Source: Eubacteriales bacterium
Lineage (GTDB): Bacteria; Bacillota; Clostridia; Oscillospirales; CAG-272
Assembly (NCBI GenBank): GCA_045532975.1
Contig: JAZSGX010000067.1
Coordinates: forward strand, 1-62,687
Length of the DNA: 62,687 nucleotides
Reading direction: 5' to 3'
Shown piece after piece: positions 1 to 12,349 of this stretch (its first letter is position 1; each line of letters begins with the position of its first letter). The notes under the pieces were generated by a model, which had not been told where the DNA came from, did not search any database, and saw nothing but the letters and a program-made list of their open reading frames with translations. Made by a program: the position numbers and the translations under genes.

Positions 1-40
1 ATTCAGCTGACCGATACTAATAGACCGAAAGCTTGAACTA
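1..40 (+). rRNA. rrl: 23S rRNA, 3'-terminal fragment (gene continues upstream of the window)
   Basis: attcagctgaccgatactaatagaccgaaagcttgaac aligns with the conserved bacterial 23S 3' end (E. coli ...GAGCUAACCGGUACUAAUGAACCGUGAGGCUUAACC). The exact 3' end is approximate. Confidence 0.75.
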
Positions 41-164
41 CTTTGTATCGATTATCTCAATCAATACTTTGTTGAATACACTAAAACAAGCGTTCTCATT
101 CCTTTCTTTCTTGGGTTTTTAATGAGCATTTTGCTCAAAAGAAGCGCTTGCGGGCGATTCCGAT

Positions 165-240
165 GCACCTCTAGCTCAGTTGGTAGAGCAACTGACTCTT
201 AATCAGTGGGTCCGGAGTTCGAGTCTCCGGAGGTGCACCA
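165..240 (+). tRNA. tRNA-Lys (anticodon CTT), CCA encoded
   Basis: Full cloverleaf: acceptor GCACCTC/GAGGTGC, D stem GCTC/GAGC, anticodon stem ACTGA/TCAGT with loop CTCTTAA, T arm CGGAG-TTCGAGT-CTCCG, 3' CCA. Confidence 0.9.
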
Positions 241-334
241 TTTAGGTTACAATGGCTGTTAAACAAGACGGTCGTGGTAATAGATAAATTTCGCACAAAC
301 TAAGGCGAAATACGGTAGCGGAGCCACTCCGCAG

Positions 335-449
<115 letters not shown>

Positions 450-456
450 ACAAGTA

Positions 457-498
457 AACGCTTTTAGGAAGACAAATTCTTAAAAGCGTTTTGCTTTC
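457..498 (+). terminator. Hairpin plus T-tract between the two 5S genes
   Basis: AACGCTTTTAGGAA-gacaaa-TTCTTAAAAGCGTT (14 bp, one G.U) followed by TTGCTTTC. Confidence 0.5.
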
Positions 499-526
499 TA
501 ACAATTGAATAGGAAAAAGGAAAAAG

Positions 527-641
<115 letters not shown>

Positions 642-731
642 ATTTTTCCAATTCTATTTGATTGAAAATATCAGATTAGGGAATACTTAATCTGTTAAAT
701 ACGGAAAACGTGAATGCGTTATCCCCAATAT

Positions 732-807
732 TCCGAATTAGCTCAGTTGGCAGAGCACCTGACTGTTAATCAGGTTGTCGCTGGTTCGAGCCCAGCATTC
801 GGAGCCA
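732..807 (+). tRNA. tRNA-Asn (anticodon GTT), CCA encoded
   Basis: Acceptor TCCGAAT/ATTCGGA, D arm GCTC-AGTTGGCA-GAGC, anticodon stem CCTGA/TCAGG with loop CTGTTAA, T arm GCTGG-TTCGAGC-CCAGC, discriminator G, CCA. Confidence 0.92.
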
Positions 808-809
808 TA

Positions 810-850
810 AAAGAAAAGCACGAACTTAGTTCGTGCTTTTCTTTTATTAT
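810..850 (+). terminator. Rho-independent terminator after tRNA-Asn
   Basis: AGAAAAGCACGAA-cttag-TTCGTGCTTTTCT followed by TTTATTAT. Confidence 0.8.
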
Positions 851-929
851 GGTTCCAAATGCTGAGCTCTCACATAGCTCCATCTAATCACAGTTTGTGC
901 TCTCAAAAGCGAGCTACTCAGTTGGCAGG

Positions 930-1040
930 CGGACCGAGAAAAACAATTAAGTATTGTTTTTCGACGGGAGTTAACTAAAACAAGGAGTTTTGAAGCCGAG
1001 TGTATCGAGGCGCGCAAAACGAGTATGTTTTAGGAAGTTG
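930..1040 (+). repeat. Structured module, copy 1 (reference orientation)
   Basis: Contains hairpin AAAAACAAT-TAAGT-ATTGTTTTT (939-961), GAGTGTATCGAGGCG (998-1012) and GTATGTTTT (1023-1031). Collinear with 11762-11874. Boundaries approximate. Confidence 0.7.
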
Positions 1041-1045
1041 GTTTA

Positions 1046-1211
1046 GTTAATCAGGTTGTCGCTGGTTCACGCTTCGCGTCCACTCCAGTCGCATAGTCGA
1101 TTAACTTCGCTTCGATACGCTCAGCTTGTTACTCTTCTTGCTTTGTGGAGAGAACTGCGGCGAAAACAATTCTTAATTATTTTCGCTCTTGTTCCCCAGC
1201 ATTCGGAGCCA
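1046..1211 (+). pseudogene. tRNA-Asn 3' half (anticodon loop to CCA), interrupted in the T loop by a 126-nt module. No 5' acceptor strand.
   Basis: 1046-1068 matches tRNA-Asn 765-787 at 23 of 23 positions. 1195-1219 is identical to 792-816 (25 of 25; the tRNA 3' fragment itself ends at the CCA, 1211). The T-loop GAG is replaced by 1069-1194. A degenerate D-arm-like AGCTACTCAGTTGGCAGG lies at 912-929. Confidence 0.7.
1069..1194 (-). repeat. Structured module, copy 2 (inverted), inside the T loop of the tRNA-Asn remnant
   Basis: The reverse complement carries the same ordered blocks: hairpin 1160-1186 with a TTAAG-type loop, CGCTTCGATACGCTC (1108-1122, the reverse complement of GAGCGTATCGAAGCG), and the TTGTGGAGAGAA and CTCCAGTC blocks shared with copy 3. 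Confidence 0.65.
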
Positions 1212-1212
1212 T

Positions 1213-1250
1213 AAAAGAACCACACGAACCAAGTTCGTGTGGTTTCTTTT
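1213..1250 (+). terminator. Terminator hairpin after the duplicated tRNA-Asn 3' end
   Basis: AGAACCACACGAA-ccaag-TTCGTGTGGTTTCT plus TTTATTA. Relative to 810-850 the stem differs by paired, compensatory substitutions. Confidence 0.7.
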
Positions 1251-1385
1251 ATTACTCCGATTGTTATGGCGAAAATCTGCTCACGTCAGTGATTGCTGCG
1301 ACGGACGAAGTCCTAGTCCCTGAAAGGGGGTTCGAGCCTTAGAGCGCCATAACAACTGGGCGTCTCACCAGCGACCGCTGGTTCC

Positions 1386-1507
1386 ACCTACGGTGCCGCT
1401 CCAGTCATATGGTCGTTCTGTGTCGCAATCGCAGATCACTCCGAGAACTCCCTATTTTGTGGAGAGAATTTCGTTTAAAACGATACTTAATCGTTTTAAA
1501 CTTCATT
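1386..1507 (-). repeat. Structured module, copy 3 (inverted), inside a second tRNA-like T arm
   Basis: Flanked by CGCTGGTTC (1377-1385) and CCCCAGCAGTGGGAGCCA (1508-1525). Perfect hairpin GTTTAAAACGAT-ACTTA-ATCGTTTTAAAC (1473-1501). TTGTGGAGAGAA at 1457-1468 and CTCCAGTC at 1399-1406. Confidence 0.65.
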
Positions 1508-1691
1508 CCCCAGCAGTGGGAGCCAAAACAAAAAGGACACCAAAACCTATATTAGAAATACTCAAGTGCAATTCAAAAACTGCCTTTGAATACGGAATGC
1601 GATATCGTATAAAAAATTCTTAATGCTCGTAATAATACTCTAAAGCTACATAATAGCGGGGCTTTGGGCTTTGATTTAAGTGTATATAAAG

Positions 1692-1723
1692 AAAAGTGCA
1701 AGCCTCACTTTGACTTGCACTTT
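1692..1723 (-). terminator. Terminator downstream of the permease gene
   Basis: AAAAGTGCAAG...CTTGCACTTT hairpin with a T-rich tail on the minus strand. Confidence 0.6.
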
Positions 1724-1752
1724 ATAATATTTTCCTCCAAAAGATAACATAA

Positions 1753-2610
1753 TCAAAGGCTTACCAAGCACAGCCCCAATATGCCGATTAGTATACCAGT
1801 TAGCTTTTTTACAGTCATTTTTTCCTTAAACAAAAATATTGAGCCGAAACAGACTAAAATAATACCAAGACCGTTAAACAGTGGGAATAAAACCACAGAT
1901 GGCACTTTGCCGGCAAGAAGAGTCATTACTGTGCTGATAATACACAGAGATAATGCACTGCCAATAGCGAATGGATACATCGCCTTAGCCCTTGATTTCA
2001 ATTCAATGTGTGGCTTTGAAATGACTACTAAAATCAAAAATGCAACAACAAATGAGTAATAGTTATATGCACTTACGCTTTGGTCCTTAAAGTAGAGTGA
2101 CATCATTTTTTGTATAACCATAACAGCGCCACTGGTTAAGAAAATTATAATGCCGATTATAATTCCCAATAGCTCATATTTCTTTGCTTCACCCTTTGAA
2201 TCCTTTAATAGTACAATTGAACAAATAGCCAAAATTATACCAACTAGGGACACAAGGCTCAATTTTTCAGACCACAAGAAATGTCCCAATACGCAAGGAA
2301 CGATCATACCTGATGCGTGGCAAAGGGACATAAAAGCAACCGATGTTTTTTCATACCCTGTCATTATTAATGTTTTGCTGATTGCATACATAACACCACA
2401 TGCAATGCCGCAAGCAATTGCGCCCCAACCGAATTTGGGAGCATCATCTAAAATAACTAATGGGATAAAGAAAAAACTGCCGATAAGAAATTTAAACGCA
2501 TTATAAAATGCGTTCATTCGTACACCGTTTTTCGCTGATGCAAGCTTATCGCAAAACGCATTTGTTGCGTAAAGAGGCACACAAGCTAAAATTATAAGTA
2601 TTTCCTTCAT
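1753..2610 (-). CDS. DMT-superfamily (EamA/GRP-like) 10-TM permease
   Basis: 285 aa, hydrophobic throughout with about 10 predicted helices. Abuts the upstream hydrolase gene (2-nt gap). Confidence 0.55.
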   Translation of the reverse strand: MKEILIILACVPLYATNAFCDKLASAKNGVRMNAFYNAFKFLIGSFFFIPLVILDDAPKFGWGAIACGIACGVMYAISKTLIMTGYEKTSVAFMSLCHASGMIVPCVLGHFLWSEKLSLVSLVGIILAICSIVLLKDSKGEAKKYELLGIIIGIIIFLTSGAVMVIQKMMSLYFKDQSVSAYNYYSFVVAFLILVVISKPHIELKSRAKAMYPFAIGSALSLCIISTVMTLLAGKVPSVVLFPLFNGLGIILVCFGSIFLFKEKMTVKKLTGILIGILGLCLVSL

Positions 2611-2612
2611 AA

Positions 2613-3959
2613 TTAAATAGTTATAGTTAAATTGTTTTTCTTTTTGCTTGATAATGTAAATGTCTTGCTTATTGTTTTTTTGTCTTTTATGATTTCAATT
2701 TCATAATCACCGTAAAAGCCTCTGAAATTCACACAGCCCTCATCATTCAAGGTTAAATTAATCTCAGTGTGCCATTTCTTGTTGATTAAATTGTCAAGCA
2801 TAATGTAAGATGGCTTTGGTGTCATATCAAATCTTAATAAACCACCATAGTACACATTTTCACCCACTGTCATATTTCCTTGAGACCATCTTATAGCCTC
2901 AGGCGTAGGATTATCAACATAAGCATAGCCATCAACTAAATTCCAATATATAATTTGCTCCATTGATGGGTGTGAAAACCAAATAGTATATAAGCATTCA
3001 AGAATTTTAGCTTGAATTTCCTCGTCGGCTGGTTCATTGGAGTAAGCAGGAATGGTTATTTCTGTTACCTGCAAATGCTTTGACAAATTAGAATATAAAT
3101 TCATATGTTTGTAAAGGCATTTAGGATTGTAAAGATAGCTTGATTTGTTTATTTCGGACTCTCTGCTTTCAAACACGTGGAACTGTGCTCCAATGGCATC
3201 AATTCGAGCGCCCTTTAGCATATTTGCTTCGGTGTATGCGTAATAGCTATCGGTTGAACGGCAGTTTTCACCCCAAAATGCATCGGTATGTTCGTTTATA
3301 ACCAGCTGATTATTAGGAAAATACTTTTCAGCTAGCTTAAAGCACCATTCTATGTAATCATTTTCGTCATAAAATTCAGTGACCCTATGATTCCAAAGCA
3401 TTTCGTTAGTTACTTCAATAGTCGGGATTTTATCTGCATATCTATGTGCAATTTCCTTATATCTATTTTCAAGTGCTTCCTTAATTTCGTCAATCGTTGC
3501 ATTAGATAGCCATTTGGGGAAGTGATGCTCGTATGCAAGAGCGTGCTCTCTTGGTTCAATTCCGTTTTCCTCGCAGTATTCCATACACAAATCAATGGCG
3601 GGACGTCGATAATATTTTTCTGAATTTTTATCATATCTCAGCTTGCCCCTTTCAGGCTCAACGGAGCTCCAATAAAAGGGCAGAGTAGCCATATTGAAAA
3701 TATTTTTAAAATAATCCCTATAAAGTAGGTTTTTTTCATTGGTTTCAAGCTCATCAAGTAAAAACAGATTAGCGCCAAATTTAAATTCGTGCTTAATTTG
3801 GTTAATCTTAATTTTTGCATTGGGTACAGCATTTCCGTTTTCATCAATTACGGAAATTGTCATATCGCCCTTGCGATATTTTTCTATATTTTCGCTTACT
3901 GTGCATTCGAAAAATTCCTTATTGCTTTCAAAGTGTTCAAGCACCTTATATCTATCCAT
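2613..3959 (-). CDS. Glycoside hydrolase, GH10-like (beta/alpha)8 fold, no signal peptide
   Basis: 448 aa. Candidate acid/base motif VTNEM and nucleophile motif VTEITIP. AAGGAG RBS. Confidence 0.55.
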   Translation of the reverse strand: MDRYKVLEHFESNKEFFECTVSENIEKYRKGDMTISVIDENGNAVPNAKIKINQIKHEFKFGANLFLLDELETNEKNLLYRDYFKNIFNMATLPFYWSSVEPERGKLRYDKNSEKYYRRPAIDLCMEYCEENGIEPREHALAYEHHFPKWLSNATIDEIKEALENRYKEIAHRYADKIPTIEVTNEMLWNHRVTEFYDENDYIEWCFKLAEKYFPNNQLVINEHTDAFWGENCRSTDSYYAYTEANMLKGARIDAIGAQFHVFESRESEINKSSYLYNPKCLYKHMNLYSNLSKHLQVTEITIPAYSNEPADEEIQAKILECLYTIWFSHPSMEQIIYWNLVDGYAYVDNPTPEAIRWSQGNMTVGENVYYGGLLRFDMTPKPSYIMLDNLINKKWHTEINLTLNDEGCVNFRGFYGDYEIEIIKDKKTISKTFTLSSKKKNNLTITI

Positions 3960-3971
3960 ATTTTCTCCTTT

Positions 3972-4748
3972 TTAAGCATGTTGATTTTTATATTTTTTAA
4001 TGTATTCTGTGGGGGACACGCCAATTTGTTCCTTGAATTGCCTGCTGAAAAAGTAAATGTCGGAAAAATTACACATCTCGGCAATTTGATTAACGGAATA
4101 TCTTCGCACCGATAACAGCTCGCAGGCATAATTCATTTTCTTTTGAATTATGTATTTTTTAACCGAAACCCCAAACTTTTTCTTGAATAACCGTTTTAGA
4201 CACGATTCGCTTATTTCGCAAACGGATGCTAGATATTCGTTTGTCAAGCTCTTATCCAAAAAGCCCTGCTCAATTTCCTCAATTGCAGGAAGAATTTTTA
4301 CGTATTGCTCCGTGGGCAAATAATTGTTTTTTTGAAGGCTTGAGAGAATTTTATAAAGCAGGGACATGCTTTCGAAGTAATACCCTTCGCCTTTATTGTT
4401 CCAAACGGAAAACAGCTTTTTGAAAAGAGATCCTATATATTCGTTGCTTTTGGAGTGTACAGTAAAGGCAACACTCGATATTGGCTTGTCGGATTCAAAG
4501 AAAACATCTATACATTCACCTAATTTTGAACGCTCAATTTCATATTTGGAAACAGTTCCGCGGGGTAAAAAGCGCACGGTGCTTGGTGACACCTTCAAGA
4601 CCGTGTCGCCAAAATATACAGTATATTCACCTGAAAAGTCAAAAATCAATTCATTAGCCGGAAGCAAGCTTGCGTAGCTCTCGACACTTTTTTGCTTTCT
4701 GAATAATACAACCTTTTCAATTTTAGTAATAAGAAAATTATTTTCCAT
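3972..4748 (-). CDS. AraC-family transcriptional regulator
   Basis: C-terminal AraC HTH (IAEMCNFSDIYFFSRQFKEQIGVSPTEY). Start moved to MENNFLIT, which has a GGGAGGA RBS. The ORF track begins at 4793. Confidence 0.8.
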   Translation of the reverse strand: MENNFLITKIEKVVLFRKQKSVESYASLLPANELIFDFSGEYTVYFGDTVLKVSPSTVRFLPRGTVSKYEIERSKLGECIDVFFESDKPISSVAFTVHSKSNEYIGSLFKKLFSVWNNKGEGYYFESMSLLYKILSSLQKNNYLPTEQYVKILPAIEEIEQGFLDKSLTNEYLASVCEISESCLKRLFKKKFGVSVKKYIIQKKMNYACELLSVRRYSVNQIAEMCNFSDIYFFSRQFKEQIGVSPTEYIKKYKNQHA

Positions 4749-4906
4749 ATAATCCTCCCTGAAAATTATAAGTCTCTTTTTTGGTAAATTCAATACAATT
4801 GAATTATATCATATAAATTGATGTAAAAAAAGTACAAATTGACCTGAAAATAAAAAGAGTAAAGCTGATTTTTTGGAAGTGTTAATTCGGTAAAAATAAA
4901 AAACAC

Positions 4907-4937
4907 TTGACTTTGACCCGAGGTTAGAGTTTATAAT
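4907..4937 (+). promoter_or_regulatory. MerR-type promoter with 19-bp spacer (copy 1)
   Basis: TTGACT, 19 nt (ttgacccgaggttagagtt), TATAAT. The spacer holds an imperfect palindrome ACTTTG-ACC-CGAGGT. Near-identical to 7916-7946. Confidence 0.7.
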
Positions 4938-4960
4938 ATTTATATAAGGGGGTGATTGTT

Positions 4961-11527: not shown

Positions 11528-11638
11528 GCTCATTGATATAAATAAAGCGTATCAAGGTTTTGGTAAAACGGGTCGTCGGGGACGTCTAACCCTATGACAG
11601 GTATGTGGAACAGAACACGGTGGAGAAAACAGAAAAAT

Positions 11639-11664
11639 GGGACGCCGAGGGCGTTGTCCCCTAC
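11639..11664. repeat. GC-rich REP-like hairpin, copy 1
   Basis: GGGACGCCGAGGGCGTTGTCCCCTAC matches 29893-29918 at 25 of 26 positions. Core palindrome GACGCC-GAG-GGCGT(T/C). Confidence 0.7.
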
Positions 11665-11672
11665 ATAGGGTA

Positions 11673-11761
11673 CGTGGCACGGAACACGGCAAGTAAAATG
11701 TAAAGCACCCCACAATGCTTTAGGCACAGTGGGGTGATATTTGTAAACTAAGTCTGTAAGC
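11673..11761 (-). repeat. 89-bp direct duplicate of the rnpB 3' end, terminator and downstream flank
   Basis: 88 of 89 positions identical to 11875-11963 (offset 202 bp). Includes the last nucleotides of rnpB (GCTTACAGACTTAGTT on the minus strand) and the CACCCCAC/GTGGGGTG hairpin. Confidence 0.85.
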
Positions 11762-11874
11762 TGGCGACAAGGCAAAAACAATTGAGTATTGTTTTTGGTG
11801 CAGGAGCTTGCCAAAACAGTGGGAGTGACGAGACGAGTGTATCGAGGCGAAGGCAATCGCGTATGTTTTGAGCG
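11762..11874 (+). repeat. Structured module, copy 4, between the two rnpB 3'-end duplicates
   Basis: AAAAACAAT-TGAGT-ATTGTTTTT (11774-11796), GAGTGTATCGAGGCG (11835-11849), GTATGTTTT (11861-11869). Collinear with 930-1040. Confidence 0.75.
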
Positions 11875-11944
11875 CGTGGCACAGAACACGGCAAGTAAAA
11901 TGTAAAGCACCCCACAATGCTTTAGGCACAGTGGGGTGATATTT

Positions 11945-12349
11945 GTAAACTAAGTCTGTAAGCCGTGTTCTGTCGTTTAAGACGGTCATCTATCTTTGCT
12001 TTATGTTGCCATAAAGCTCCGCAAATTGCGTGCCACCCGGGGAAACGCCAAATGGCTTGTCGGGCTAACAAGATTTTCCCCATGCGGTGTTGCTTCGGAT
12101 AGGGTTTACACCCACCCTATGTTACCATAGCGTGTCGTGAGCTCTTACCTCACGTTTTCAACCTTACATAACGGACGGTCGGGGACGCCCGTCCCTACAA
12201 CCGTGGAATATTATGCGGTAATTTTCTGTTGCACTTTCCCTAAGGTCACCCTCGGCTGACGTTATCAGTTATCCTGCCCTGTGAAGCACGGACTTTCCTC
12301 ACCGTAATACCTTTCGGCAACATACGGCGCGACCGTCCAACTTAGTTCG
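11945..12349 (-). ncRNA. rnpB: RNase P RNA (bacterial, type-A-like)
   Basis: Minus strand carries GAGGAAAGTCCG (12290-12300 on plus), AGGGCAGG, AAGTGCAACAGAAA, GGTAAGAGCTCAC, GTAAACCC and ACAGAACACGGCTTACAG. P1 pairs AACTAAGT with ACTTAGTT. Ends are good to about 5 nt. Confidence 0.9.

Follow-up and report, generated by a model that had tools for sequence, protein, structure and literature searches.

A tandem array of gene-less structured cassettes behind the tRNA-Asn gene of a Clostridia bacterium and its relation to serine recombinase junctions

The duplicated 3′ half of the tRNA-Asn gene on contig JAZSGX010000067.1, from an Eubacteriales bacterium of the Clostridia lineage CAG-272 (assembly GCA_045532975.1), is the boundary of a tandem cassette array. 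In the following, "the window" denotes the whole analyzed stretch of 62,687 nucleotides. Our preferred reading, to which we assign a probability of roughly 0.4, is that the array consists of gene-less structured cassettes that settle behind stable-RNA genes, at their 3′ ends, and offer a recombinase-bearing element additional sites at which to land. We observed the architecture of the array, covariation in the structured module that it contains, the occurrence of this module at two loci, variability among strains and junctions with the recombinase element, and from these features we infer mobility.

The intact tRNA-Asn(GTT) gene lies on the plus strand at 732-807, with an encoded CCA at 805-807, as an earlier note on this DNA had stated and as both ARAGORN and the Rfam tRNA model (69.3 bits) agree. 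Two tandem 5S rRNA genes on the same strand (334-450 and 526-642; Rfam RF00001, 86.3 and 85.3 bits) place the array at the distal end of a ribosomal RNA (rrn) operon. The earlier note had drawn attention to a downstream recurrence of the tRNA 3′ part. Its first block holds exactly (765-787 and 1046-1068, 23/23 identical), and the second is likewise identical at 25/25 positions but pairs 791-815, and not 792-816, with 1195-1219 (offset 404). Exact repeats of 23 and 25 nt within about 1 kb rule out chance. A terminator hairpin was said to follow each tail copy, and both are present. T1 (807-850) is a perfect 20-bp palindrome (807-826 / 828-847, 100% complementary) with a T-rich tail, and T2 (1211-1254, stem 1217-1245) is terminator-like on both strands; both have the make-up of an intrinsic terminator, with a G+C-containing hairpin and a T run behind it. 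Among the eight stem differences that had been taken as pairwise compensatory, six are indeed so, representing three swapped pairs (AAG/CTT to CCA/TGG), but the other two are loop bases. The loop changes from TTA to CAA, and the 3′ arms differ by 1 nt in length. Compensatory mutation of the terminator in place is not supported, as T1 and T2 look like two pre-existing alleles that both recur elsewhere: T1 at locus L010 (4496-4546, 98% identity), where it follows a truncated recombinase gene, and T2 at locus L012 (from 3604, 92% over 173 nt), again after a recombinase gene (L numbers denote loci collected in this work).

The second tRNA copy is split by a 126-nt insert (1069-1194), a diverged version of which recurs at 1386-1510, revealing two tandem units. 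Unit A (~850-1211, plus strand) is a tRNA-Asn-derived frame interrupted by two module copies. It begins directly after T1 with an acceptor-5′-like strand (850-866) that is complementary to its own 3′ end (1195-1211), and carries a D-loop copy (917-928, equal to 742-753), tRNA positions 34-56 (1046-1068) and the T-stem 3′ strand through the CCA (1195-1211). The ~240 bp between the tail copies, previously regarded as an emptied scar, belong to a tRNA-derived unit with two covarying module copies. Unit B (1255-1525, plus strand), which the earlier note had overlooked, follows directly after T2. It has the 5′ strand CTCCGATTG at 1255-1263, a 5′ domain that is closed by 1261-1271 / 1345-1355 and includes a T-loop-like GGTTCGAGCC at 1329-1338, and the 3′ end CAGTGGGAGCCA at 1514-1525. 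As its 5′ and 3′ ends are mismatched, Unit B is chimeric; a Unit B with matched ends was found in L010, and the cognate 5′ strand CCCACTG, fitting CAGTGGG, in L013. Three GGAGCCA ends are present in the window (801-807, 1205-1211 and 1519-1525), and at the right edge of the array (1526-1546, plus strand) only the left half of a terminator-type palindrome remains (AAACAAAAAGGACACC), which is complete in L013 and L023. With their ends paired, Units A and B exhibited fold z-scores of -4.78 and -4.82, respectively. Neither ARAGORN nor Rfam called a tRNA or tmRNA on the units, and a search against Rfam 15, including the tRNA, tmRNA, ROOL, GOLLD and omega-RNA-type families, left them unmatched (window 1-2000 up to E<=10, L019 array up to E<=5). 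Beyond the tRNA and 5S genes themselves, Rfam matches stayed below half the gathering score of their family; they were weak, scattered and mostly to microRNA or small-RNA hairpin models lying over terminator palindromes. A protein-coding reading was rejected: although a 52-aa open reading frame (ORF) at 1056-1214 ends in GAG CCA TAA like the recombinase described below, Unit B uses another frame with stops, and no reading frame is common to the two units.

Using nhmmer and a covariance model, R1, we located four copies of a module of ~130-165 nt in the 62.7 kb, present in both orientations and all tied to stable-RNA genes. These are the direct copy of Unit A (1044-1211, plus strand, core 1069-1194; R1 170 bits), the inverted copy of Unit A (914-1053, minus strand; nhmmer E=1.5e-6, R1 31.5 bits, E=9e-6), the copy of Unit B (1360-1525, plus strand; R1 167 bits), and a copy at the RNase P RNA gene (11749-11909, minus strand; nhmmer E=6e-10, R1 44 bits, E=8e-9). 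The ..CCAG end of the module is always joined to a piece of a stable RNA, being either the tRNA acceptor 3′ strand, the 3′ strand of RNase P helix P1 or the antisense of the tRNA D-loop. The last case applies to the inverted copy at 914-1053, whose ..CCTG end abuts the antisense D-loop. This copy is less similar to the direct copy of Unit A than to the one linked to RNase P, which suggests that they were inserted separately. Module orientation tracks the RNA gene and not one replication strand, given that the rrn operon is on the plus and RNase P on the minus strand, 11 kb apart.

The alignment of 12 distinct module copies from the window and related loci (A2) yielded an RNAalifold consensus structure of seven helices and 36 pairs. 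Compensatory double changes were found in 16 of these 36 pairs, distributed over five helices. Standard pairs occupy 96.8% of the cells, compared to 84.1 ± 1.0 in column shuffles (reached in 0/500) and ~42% with slid partners, and the covariation score was 0.39 versus 0.15. Pairing of the long-range helices is preserved among allele classes with unrelated central sequences.

We also compared the module ends with the signatures of known systems. A 5′ flank ending in GTTC is present at the T-loop and RNase P sites and missing at the inverted copies; insertion after GTTC in the manner of IS91- or IS605-type elements was not adopted, as it suits the two sites and not the inverted copies and as module orientation tracks the RNA gene. 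By inspection, no integron cores (RYYYAAC / GTTRRRY) were seen at module ends, and the window encodes no IntI integrase. Literature searches returned no description of such a module. Window 840-1560 was unmatched in phage and plasmid collections, two DNA patterns were unmatched in viral contigs, and the recombinase search of the latter gave one weak match. Exact-pattern scans of species-representative genomes and Joint Genome Institute (JGI) metagenomes recovered a single related metagenome-assembled genome (MAG; L001, L003), the remaining matches (L002, L004-L006) being chance matches within coding genes.

The RNase P RNA gene (11943-12348, minus strand; bacterial class A, Rfam RF00010, 247 bits) provides a second, unrelated context for the module. 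Two copies of an 89-nt block, 88/89 identical, are located here on the minus strand. The first (11875-11963) spans the last 21 nt of RNase P RNA, the terminator and ~25 nt of trailer, and the second (11673-11761) again comprises RNase P 3′ end, terminator and trailer. The RNase P-linked module sits between the two blocks and ends ..CGCCAG immediately before CTTACAGACTTAGTT. Downstream of the blocks, an internal RNase P hairpin (compare 12170-12197) recurs as two diverged copies at 11567-11663 (minus strand), and in front of each stands a CCGTGTTCTGT-type motif, the antisense of ACAGAACACGG in RNase P. In the relative L032, the flanking gene is 99.8% identical to that of the window and the layout is alike, yet the module is only ~78% alike; its second terminator has a different stem with the loop unchanged. 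In L034 and L035, the second copy of the RNase P 3′ end is absent, the flanking gene is 72.5% identical (L034 versus L032), and the 5′ half of the module is retained, with 87.5% identity to its L032 counterpart. The RNase P RNA gene of the window shares ~92% identity with that of L032 despite the 99.8% identity of the adjacent protein gene, and ~95% with that of L034, which is more distant. This pattern suggests recombinational mosaicism centered on the RNase P RNA gene, which may include replacement of the internal hairpin. The internal hairpin region (~12167-12215) is highly variable in metagenomes.

Related tRNA-Asn loci revealed that the arrays differ between close strains. In L001, a Clostridia MAG from roe-deer cecum, two 5S genes, tRNA-Asn and a terminator are followed by one short unit. 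Further tRNA-Asn loci were collected via homologues of the EamA protein encoded downstream of the array, and among these the 285-aa EamA is identical across L017-L026. At identical EamA, one unit is present in L023, two in L018 and L020, and three in L019, where the first is fused to the second. Accordingly, unit number, unit type and even the terminator vary between otherwise identical flanks. L031 has a Unit A-like copy and a truncated Unit B, and L027-L030 have EamA with neither units nor an adjacent tRNA. In L017 and L025 (reverse complement 3859-4958), a unit is broken after ~45 nt by a ~650-bp insert carrying an XRE-type HTH_31 gene and its own terminator copy; this array is not beside a tRNA. 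Window 1134-1543 is 89% identical to L010 1-411, which belongs to another assembly and has a different downstream gene.

A normal second tRNA in relatives, which the earlier note had named as speaking against its interpretation, was not seen, as each array contains only one true tRNA. The 3′ ends of the units read ATTCGGAGCCA or AGGGGGAGCCA, matching the resident tRNA: the acceptor 3′ strand of tRNA-Asn and units is AGGGGGA in the species with identical EamA and ATTCGGA in the window. Duplex energies show that the best partners for the 5′ ends of units are 3′ ends from the same species group. Joints that swap modules are present in metagenome contigs; in Logan contigs, recombinant joints were seen but no clean excision or empty site.

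Some further arrangements were noted at these loci. In L018 (minus strand, ~4555-4680), a tRNA-Asn 5′ fragment (TCCTCCTTAGCTCAGTTGGCAGA) and a ~100-nt inverted-module-like insert lie directly upstream of the true tRNA (4474-4549), and analogous joins, from window position 754 to 932 and from 1039 to 727, occur in metagenome and metatranscriptome contigs. At loci of the P0054 group, the final unit directly adjoins the stop codon of EamA, such that the array antisense would be the 3′ untranslated region of EamA. An exact look-up of the window EamA protein returned no record.

In relatives, a mobile element abuts the GGAGCCA-terminator junctions equivalent to window 801-850 and 1205-1254 (L003, L010, L011, L012 and L013). 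Its recombinase is a large serine recombinase (PF00239, PF07508, PF13408). The compact element in L012 comprises an 82-aa ORF, a rolling-circle Rep (PF23343) and the large serine recombinase, which has Resolvase and Recombinase domains and an in-frame TGA at a position where the relative L007 has Cys. This recombinase ends ..TCGGAGCCA-TAA and is followed by the T2-type terminator and Unit B-like sequence, with L012 3604-3774 matching window 1203-1374 at 92%. To the right of GGAGCCA the loci are alike, whereas on their left side some carry the recombinase gene and others a unit or tRNA; the shared right and differing left side place the junction at or near TCGGAGCCA. The idea that the tRNA 3′ end acts as an integration site is therefore retained in part. 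The site is a site-specific hotspot in this lineage, but for a large serine recombinase and not for a tyrosine integrase, and the recombinase junction in relatives sits at the acceptor/CCA end and not in the anticodon loop.

The recombinase ORF itself overlaps the junction. In L010, L011 and L012, it ends ..SEP-TAA on GGAGCCA-TAA, while in L003 (3-677) and L013 (4068-4382) the ORF, lacking its own stop at the junction, continues into the following unit. A TAA stop arises only where GCCA is followed by the trailer TAAAAG. The L003 ORF, whose homologues carry PF13408 and PF00239, extends into ..CTCGGAGCCA, followed by a terminator and then a unit. The arm adjacent to GGAGCCA reads ..TCTATATCACTCTACTC in the element versus a tRNA-like, attB-type ..TTCCCCAGCATTC in the units, and the units do not carry the attP-type half-site of the serine recombinase. 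All recombinase copies seen are decayed, either by truncation (L010, L011, L013-L015), a nonsense codon (L012) or frameshifts (L007). The possibility that the module represents the end of the recombinase element was rejected, as the element lacks the module.

In the element (L012 1-4871, also L011 1-1100), short hairpins recur upstream, in an AT-rich region that ends ..GTTAAAAT and could represent iterons or an origin. A terminator follows a possible left junction of the L012 element, ..GCCA|TATTCGTAAATATTTGTAG. Almost all homologues of the recombinase C-terminus are contig-end fragments, suggesting that GGAGCCA junctions systematically break short-read assemblies. The module arrays would account for assembly breaks here, with almost every recombinase match being a contig-edge fragment.

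Taken as gene-less cassettes, the units would each re-use the resident RNA gene, borrowing a strand that resembles the acceptor 5′ side, parts of the gene body and, in every case, the terminal helix's 3′ strand together with the terminator. These host-gene pieces would wrap the conserved module, the single-stranded fold of which appears to be under constraint. The cassettes would be, or descend from, non-autonomous mobile or recombining elements that could persist by occupying, and re-supplying, the 3′ end and terminator of essential and highly transcribed RNA genes. Recombination between the tRNA-like ends and palindromic terminators would allow arrays to grow, shrink and become chimeric, and the module, folded as single-stranded DNA or RNA, would be the functional core of the element. 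For the crossover, we considered the terminator center: half and hybrid terminators at array edges would fit, but loops are unconserved and most internal terminators are perfect palindromes. A far-reaching extension, which we put forward only as a long shot, is that the module is the scaffold of an undescribed system aimed at stable-RNA 3′ ends. The host-derived tail after ..CCAG might then act, in the form of RNA or single-stranded DNA, as a guide or homology segment that determines where the cassette recombines, and a recombinase or rolling-circle Rep could assist in trans.

Several results weigh against mobile cassettes. Because the arm of the element is unlike the unit end and the unit end is tRNA-like, the units look like extra attB-type targets rather than recombinase-mobilized elements. 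Judged by these sequences, unit ends are probably attB-like targets for the serine recombinase, which would then not mobilize the units themselves. The absence of an integrase gene, as claimed earlier, was corroborated and extended: no recombinase, transposase or reverse transcriptase is encoded by window ORFs of at least 150 aa, and none was ever seen adjoining a module. The module copies resemble each other at 60-90%, whereas an actively transposing miniature inverted-repeat transposable element (MITE) would leave near-identical copies, and the 12 aligned copies fall into few allele classes, such that independent events are fewer than the number of cells implies. We found neither an empty site nor an excised circle nor a clean target-site duplication, and in four DNA metagenomes the RNase P-linked copy had single-copy depth with no insert-skipping joint. 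Finally, at least one unit was present at 5/5 rrn-distal tRNA-Asn genes seen and at least half a module at each RNase P locus seen, and the presence of units or modules at every locus seen would also be expected of a conserved host function.

Because position and orientation are conserved wherever the loci were seen, a host structured noncoding RNA is the strongest rival, albeit an unlikely one. The units would then be "giant tRNA-like" RNAs derived from tRNA-Asn, and the RNase P transcript would carry a related extension at its 3′ end. Read-through transcription initiated at the rrn/tRNA and RNase P promoters would produce these RNAs, RNase P and 3′ trimming would free them at their acceptor-like ends, and they would serve a role such as processing, sponging or protein binding. 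In line with this, a unit stands behind the rrn-distal tRNA-Asn in the window, L001, L018, L019 and L023, a module or half module lies behind RNase P in the window, L032, L034 and L035, and units are co-oriented with the upstream RNA gene. The acceptor-like stems end in GCCA and covary with the tRNA of the species, including sense-strand G·U pairs in L018, and the covariation of the module is strong. Metatranscriptome contigs cover 897-1069 and 1083-1295 at a depth of 2-11, compared to 0 for EamA; this support is thin, the contigs may include carried-over DNA, and the metatranscriptome search returned nothing for the RNase P-linked copy.

Other features fit a host RNA poorly. A strong terminator precedes each unit, and no sigma-70-like promoter was found on the plus strand between 800 and 1600. 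Folding does not favor the sense strand either, the consensus reaching -24.4 kcal/mol in tRNA-sense versus -37.8 kcal/mol in the opposite direction, and the RNase P copy folds better as its antisense strand. Wobble cells point the same way, with 3 of G·U type versus 8 of A·C type, though these numbers are small. In addition, the GCTGG/CCAGC T-stem is lost in several units, the ends of window Unit B are mismatched, and copy number and type vary among identically flanked strains.

We regard as improbable that the arrays are non-mobile debris of unequal crossing-over and template switching at long palindromes, in which the compensatory changes would reflect quasi-palindrome correction. The terminators do lie inside longer inverted repeats (788-815 / 842-869, 1200-1219 / 1244-1263, and RNase P ACAGAACACGG...CCGTGTTCTGT), the L019 junction ..CAGCAGGGGG|CTTTGTTATGG is consistent with palindrome deletion, half and hybrid terminators occur at array edges, and L012 contains a nested partial module duplication. 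Moreover, the equal or reversed usage of G·U and A·C suits copying by Watson-Crick pairing only. However, such processes leave unexplained why one ~100-nt core follows two unrelated RNA genes that are 11 kb from each other, and does so in both orientations, why long-range helices, their arms separated by 40-60 nt, stay paired in allele classes of unrelated sequence, and why similar alleles appear in distant genomes.

Somewhat more doubtful still is a model in which the units are fossil ends of larger integrative elements, with the module as the att-proximal end of an integrase-bearing island and the units as remnants of cis-mobilizable type. Direct-repeat arrays, gene-less intervals and an att-overlapping recombinase gene match the ssrA islands of Dehalococcoides (PMC3146451), every recombinase copy seen is decayed, and the HTH_31 gene splitting the unit in L017/L025 is possible residual cargo. 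Yet the only element found at the junctions has the recombinase gene, and not the module, beside GGAGCCA, and simple att sites of serine recombinases need no covarying fold of 130 nt. Furthermore, no larger module-bearing element was present in ~170 kb of related loci or in the phage, plasmid and viral collections.

Integration into tRNA genes by tyrosine integrases leaves attL and attR with a duplicated tRNA 3′ segment while the tRNA stays functional, and the anticodon loop is a recognized sublocation for these enzymes. The model of the earlier note, an attL/attR footprint with an anticodon-loop crossover and an emptied ~240-bp element, accommodates the direct repeat of the tRNA 3′ part downstream of the intact gene and the start of the identity block at the anticodon (765 / 1046), but is very improbable, as the repeat comes in two blocks (1046-1068 and 1195-1219) split by the 126-nt module, Unit A has 5′ acceptor-like and D-loop pieces not expected in attR, the units form structured arrays, the module also accompanies RNase P, and searches of the window and of relatives revealed no tyrosine recombinase.

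Compared to described systems, the array is closest to the Dehalococcoides ssrA islands, in which the large serine recombinase DsiB targets the 3′ part of a stable RNA and its ORF runs into the att site, with the stop depending on the sequence beyond (PMC3146451). Tandem repeats of the RNA 3′ end vary in number between Dehalococcoides strains, and integrase-less intervals between them have been read as cis-mobilizable elements (PMC3146451). The same traits are present here (compare PMC3146451): the serine recombinase ORF overlaps the att site, although only in relatives and not in the window (L012, with read-through in L003 and L013), insertion is in the T-loop region, repeats of the RNA 3′ end vary by strain, amounting to 1-3 units, and the intervals between repeats lack an integrase. 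In contrast to the tmRNA target of Dehalococcoides, however, the target is tRNA-Asn, and RNase P RNA for the module. The elements are ~3-4 kb in size and encode a rolling-circle Rep, and the repeat intervals measure only 190-400 bp and consist of the covarying module and tRNA fragments, for which the Dehalococcoides counterpart is a 15-bp motif at most.

Other systems share single aspects. Like REPIN and bacterial interspersed mosaic elements (BIMEs) or MITEs, the modules are short gene-less hairpin repeats at gene 3′ ends, occurring in both orientations, modular, chimeric and with paired changes. In contrast to these, there are four copies in 62.7 kb, all linked to stable RNAs and each joined to the 3′ end of the host gene itself, and no RAYT, transposase, clean terminal repeats or target duplications were seen. 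With integron attC arrays they have in common that structure is conserved over sequence, that tandem arrays vary between strains and that a single-strand fold is presumed, but IntI, the R′/R″ core consensus and cassette ORFs are missing, and the units copy the end of the adjacent RNA gene. Like tmRNA and other tRNA-like RNAs, the units have an acceptor-like stem ending in GCCA around a large internal domain; unlike tmRNA, they have a disrupted T-arm, no tag ORF and no folding preference for the sense strand.

A partial tRNA copy behind a tRNA gene is commonly put down to a past integrase event and given no further attention. In this case, the supposed "scar" includes a conserved, strongly covarying fold of 130-165 nt that has no Rfam family and recurs at a second, unrelated stable-RNA gene, whose own 3′ end is likewise duplicated. 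The arrays differ among strains of uncultured gut and rumen Clostridia that are otherwise identical. If mobile, the cassettes would form an exceptionally small type of gene-less element that takes advantage of essential RNA genes and makes landing pads for a serine recombinase element. If they are host RNAs, they would constitute a new tRNA-derived RNA family at the end of the rRNA operon. Either way, the module is a concrete new motif.

The surroundings of the array contain a few further features. A tRNA-Lys gene (165-240) belongs to the distal part of the rRNA operon, and between the two 5S genes is a 15-bp hairpin (456-491) whose loop has AATTCTTAA, equal to the loop motif of the long hairpin of the module (1170-1178). 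The spacer between Unit B and EamA (1586-1625) shares the short matches TTGAATACGGAA, GAATGCGATATC and AAAAAATTCTTAAT with the tRNA-Asn leader (683-723) and may, on the basis of these matches, be the remnant of another tRNA-leader copy. Finally, the terminators at 1217-1245 and 1693-1723 are bidirectional palindromes located between the convergent rrn/tRNA array and EamA.

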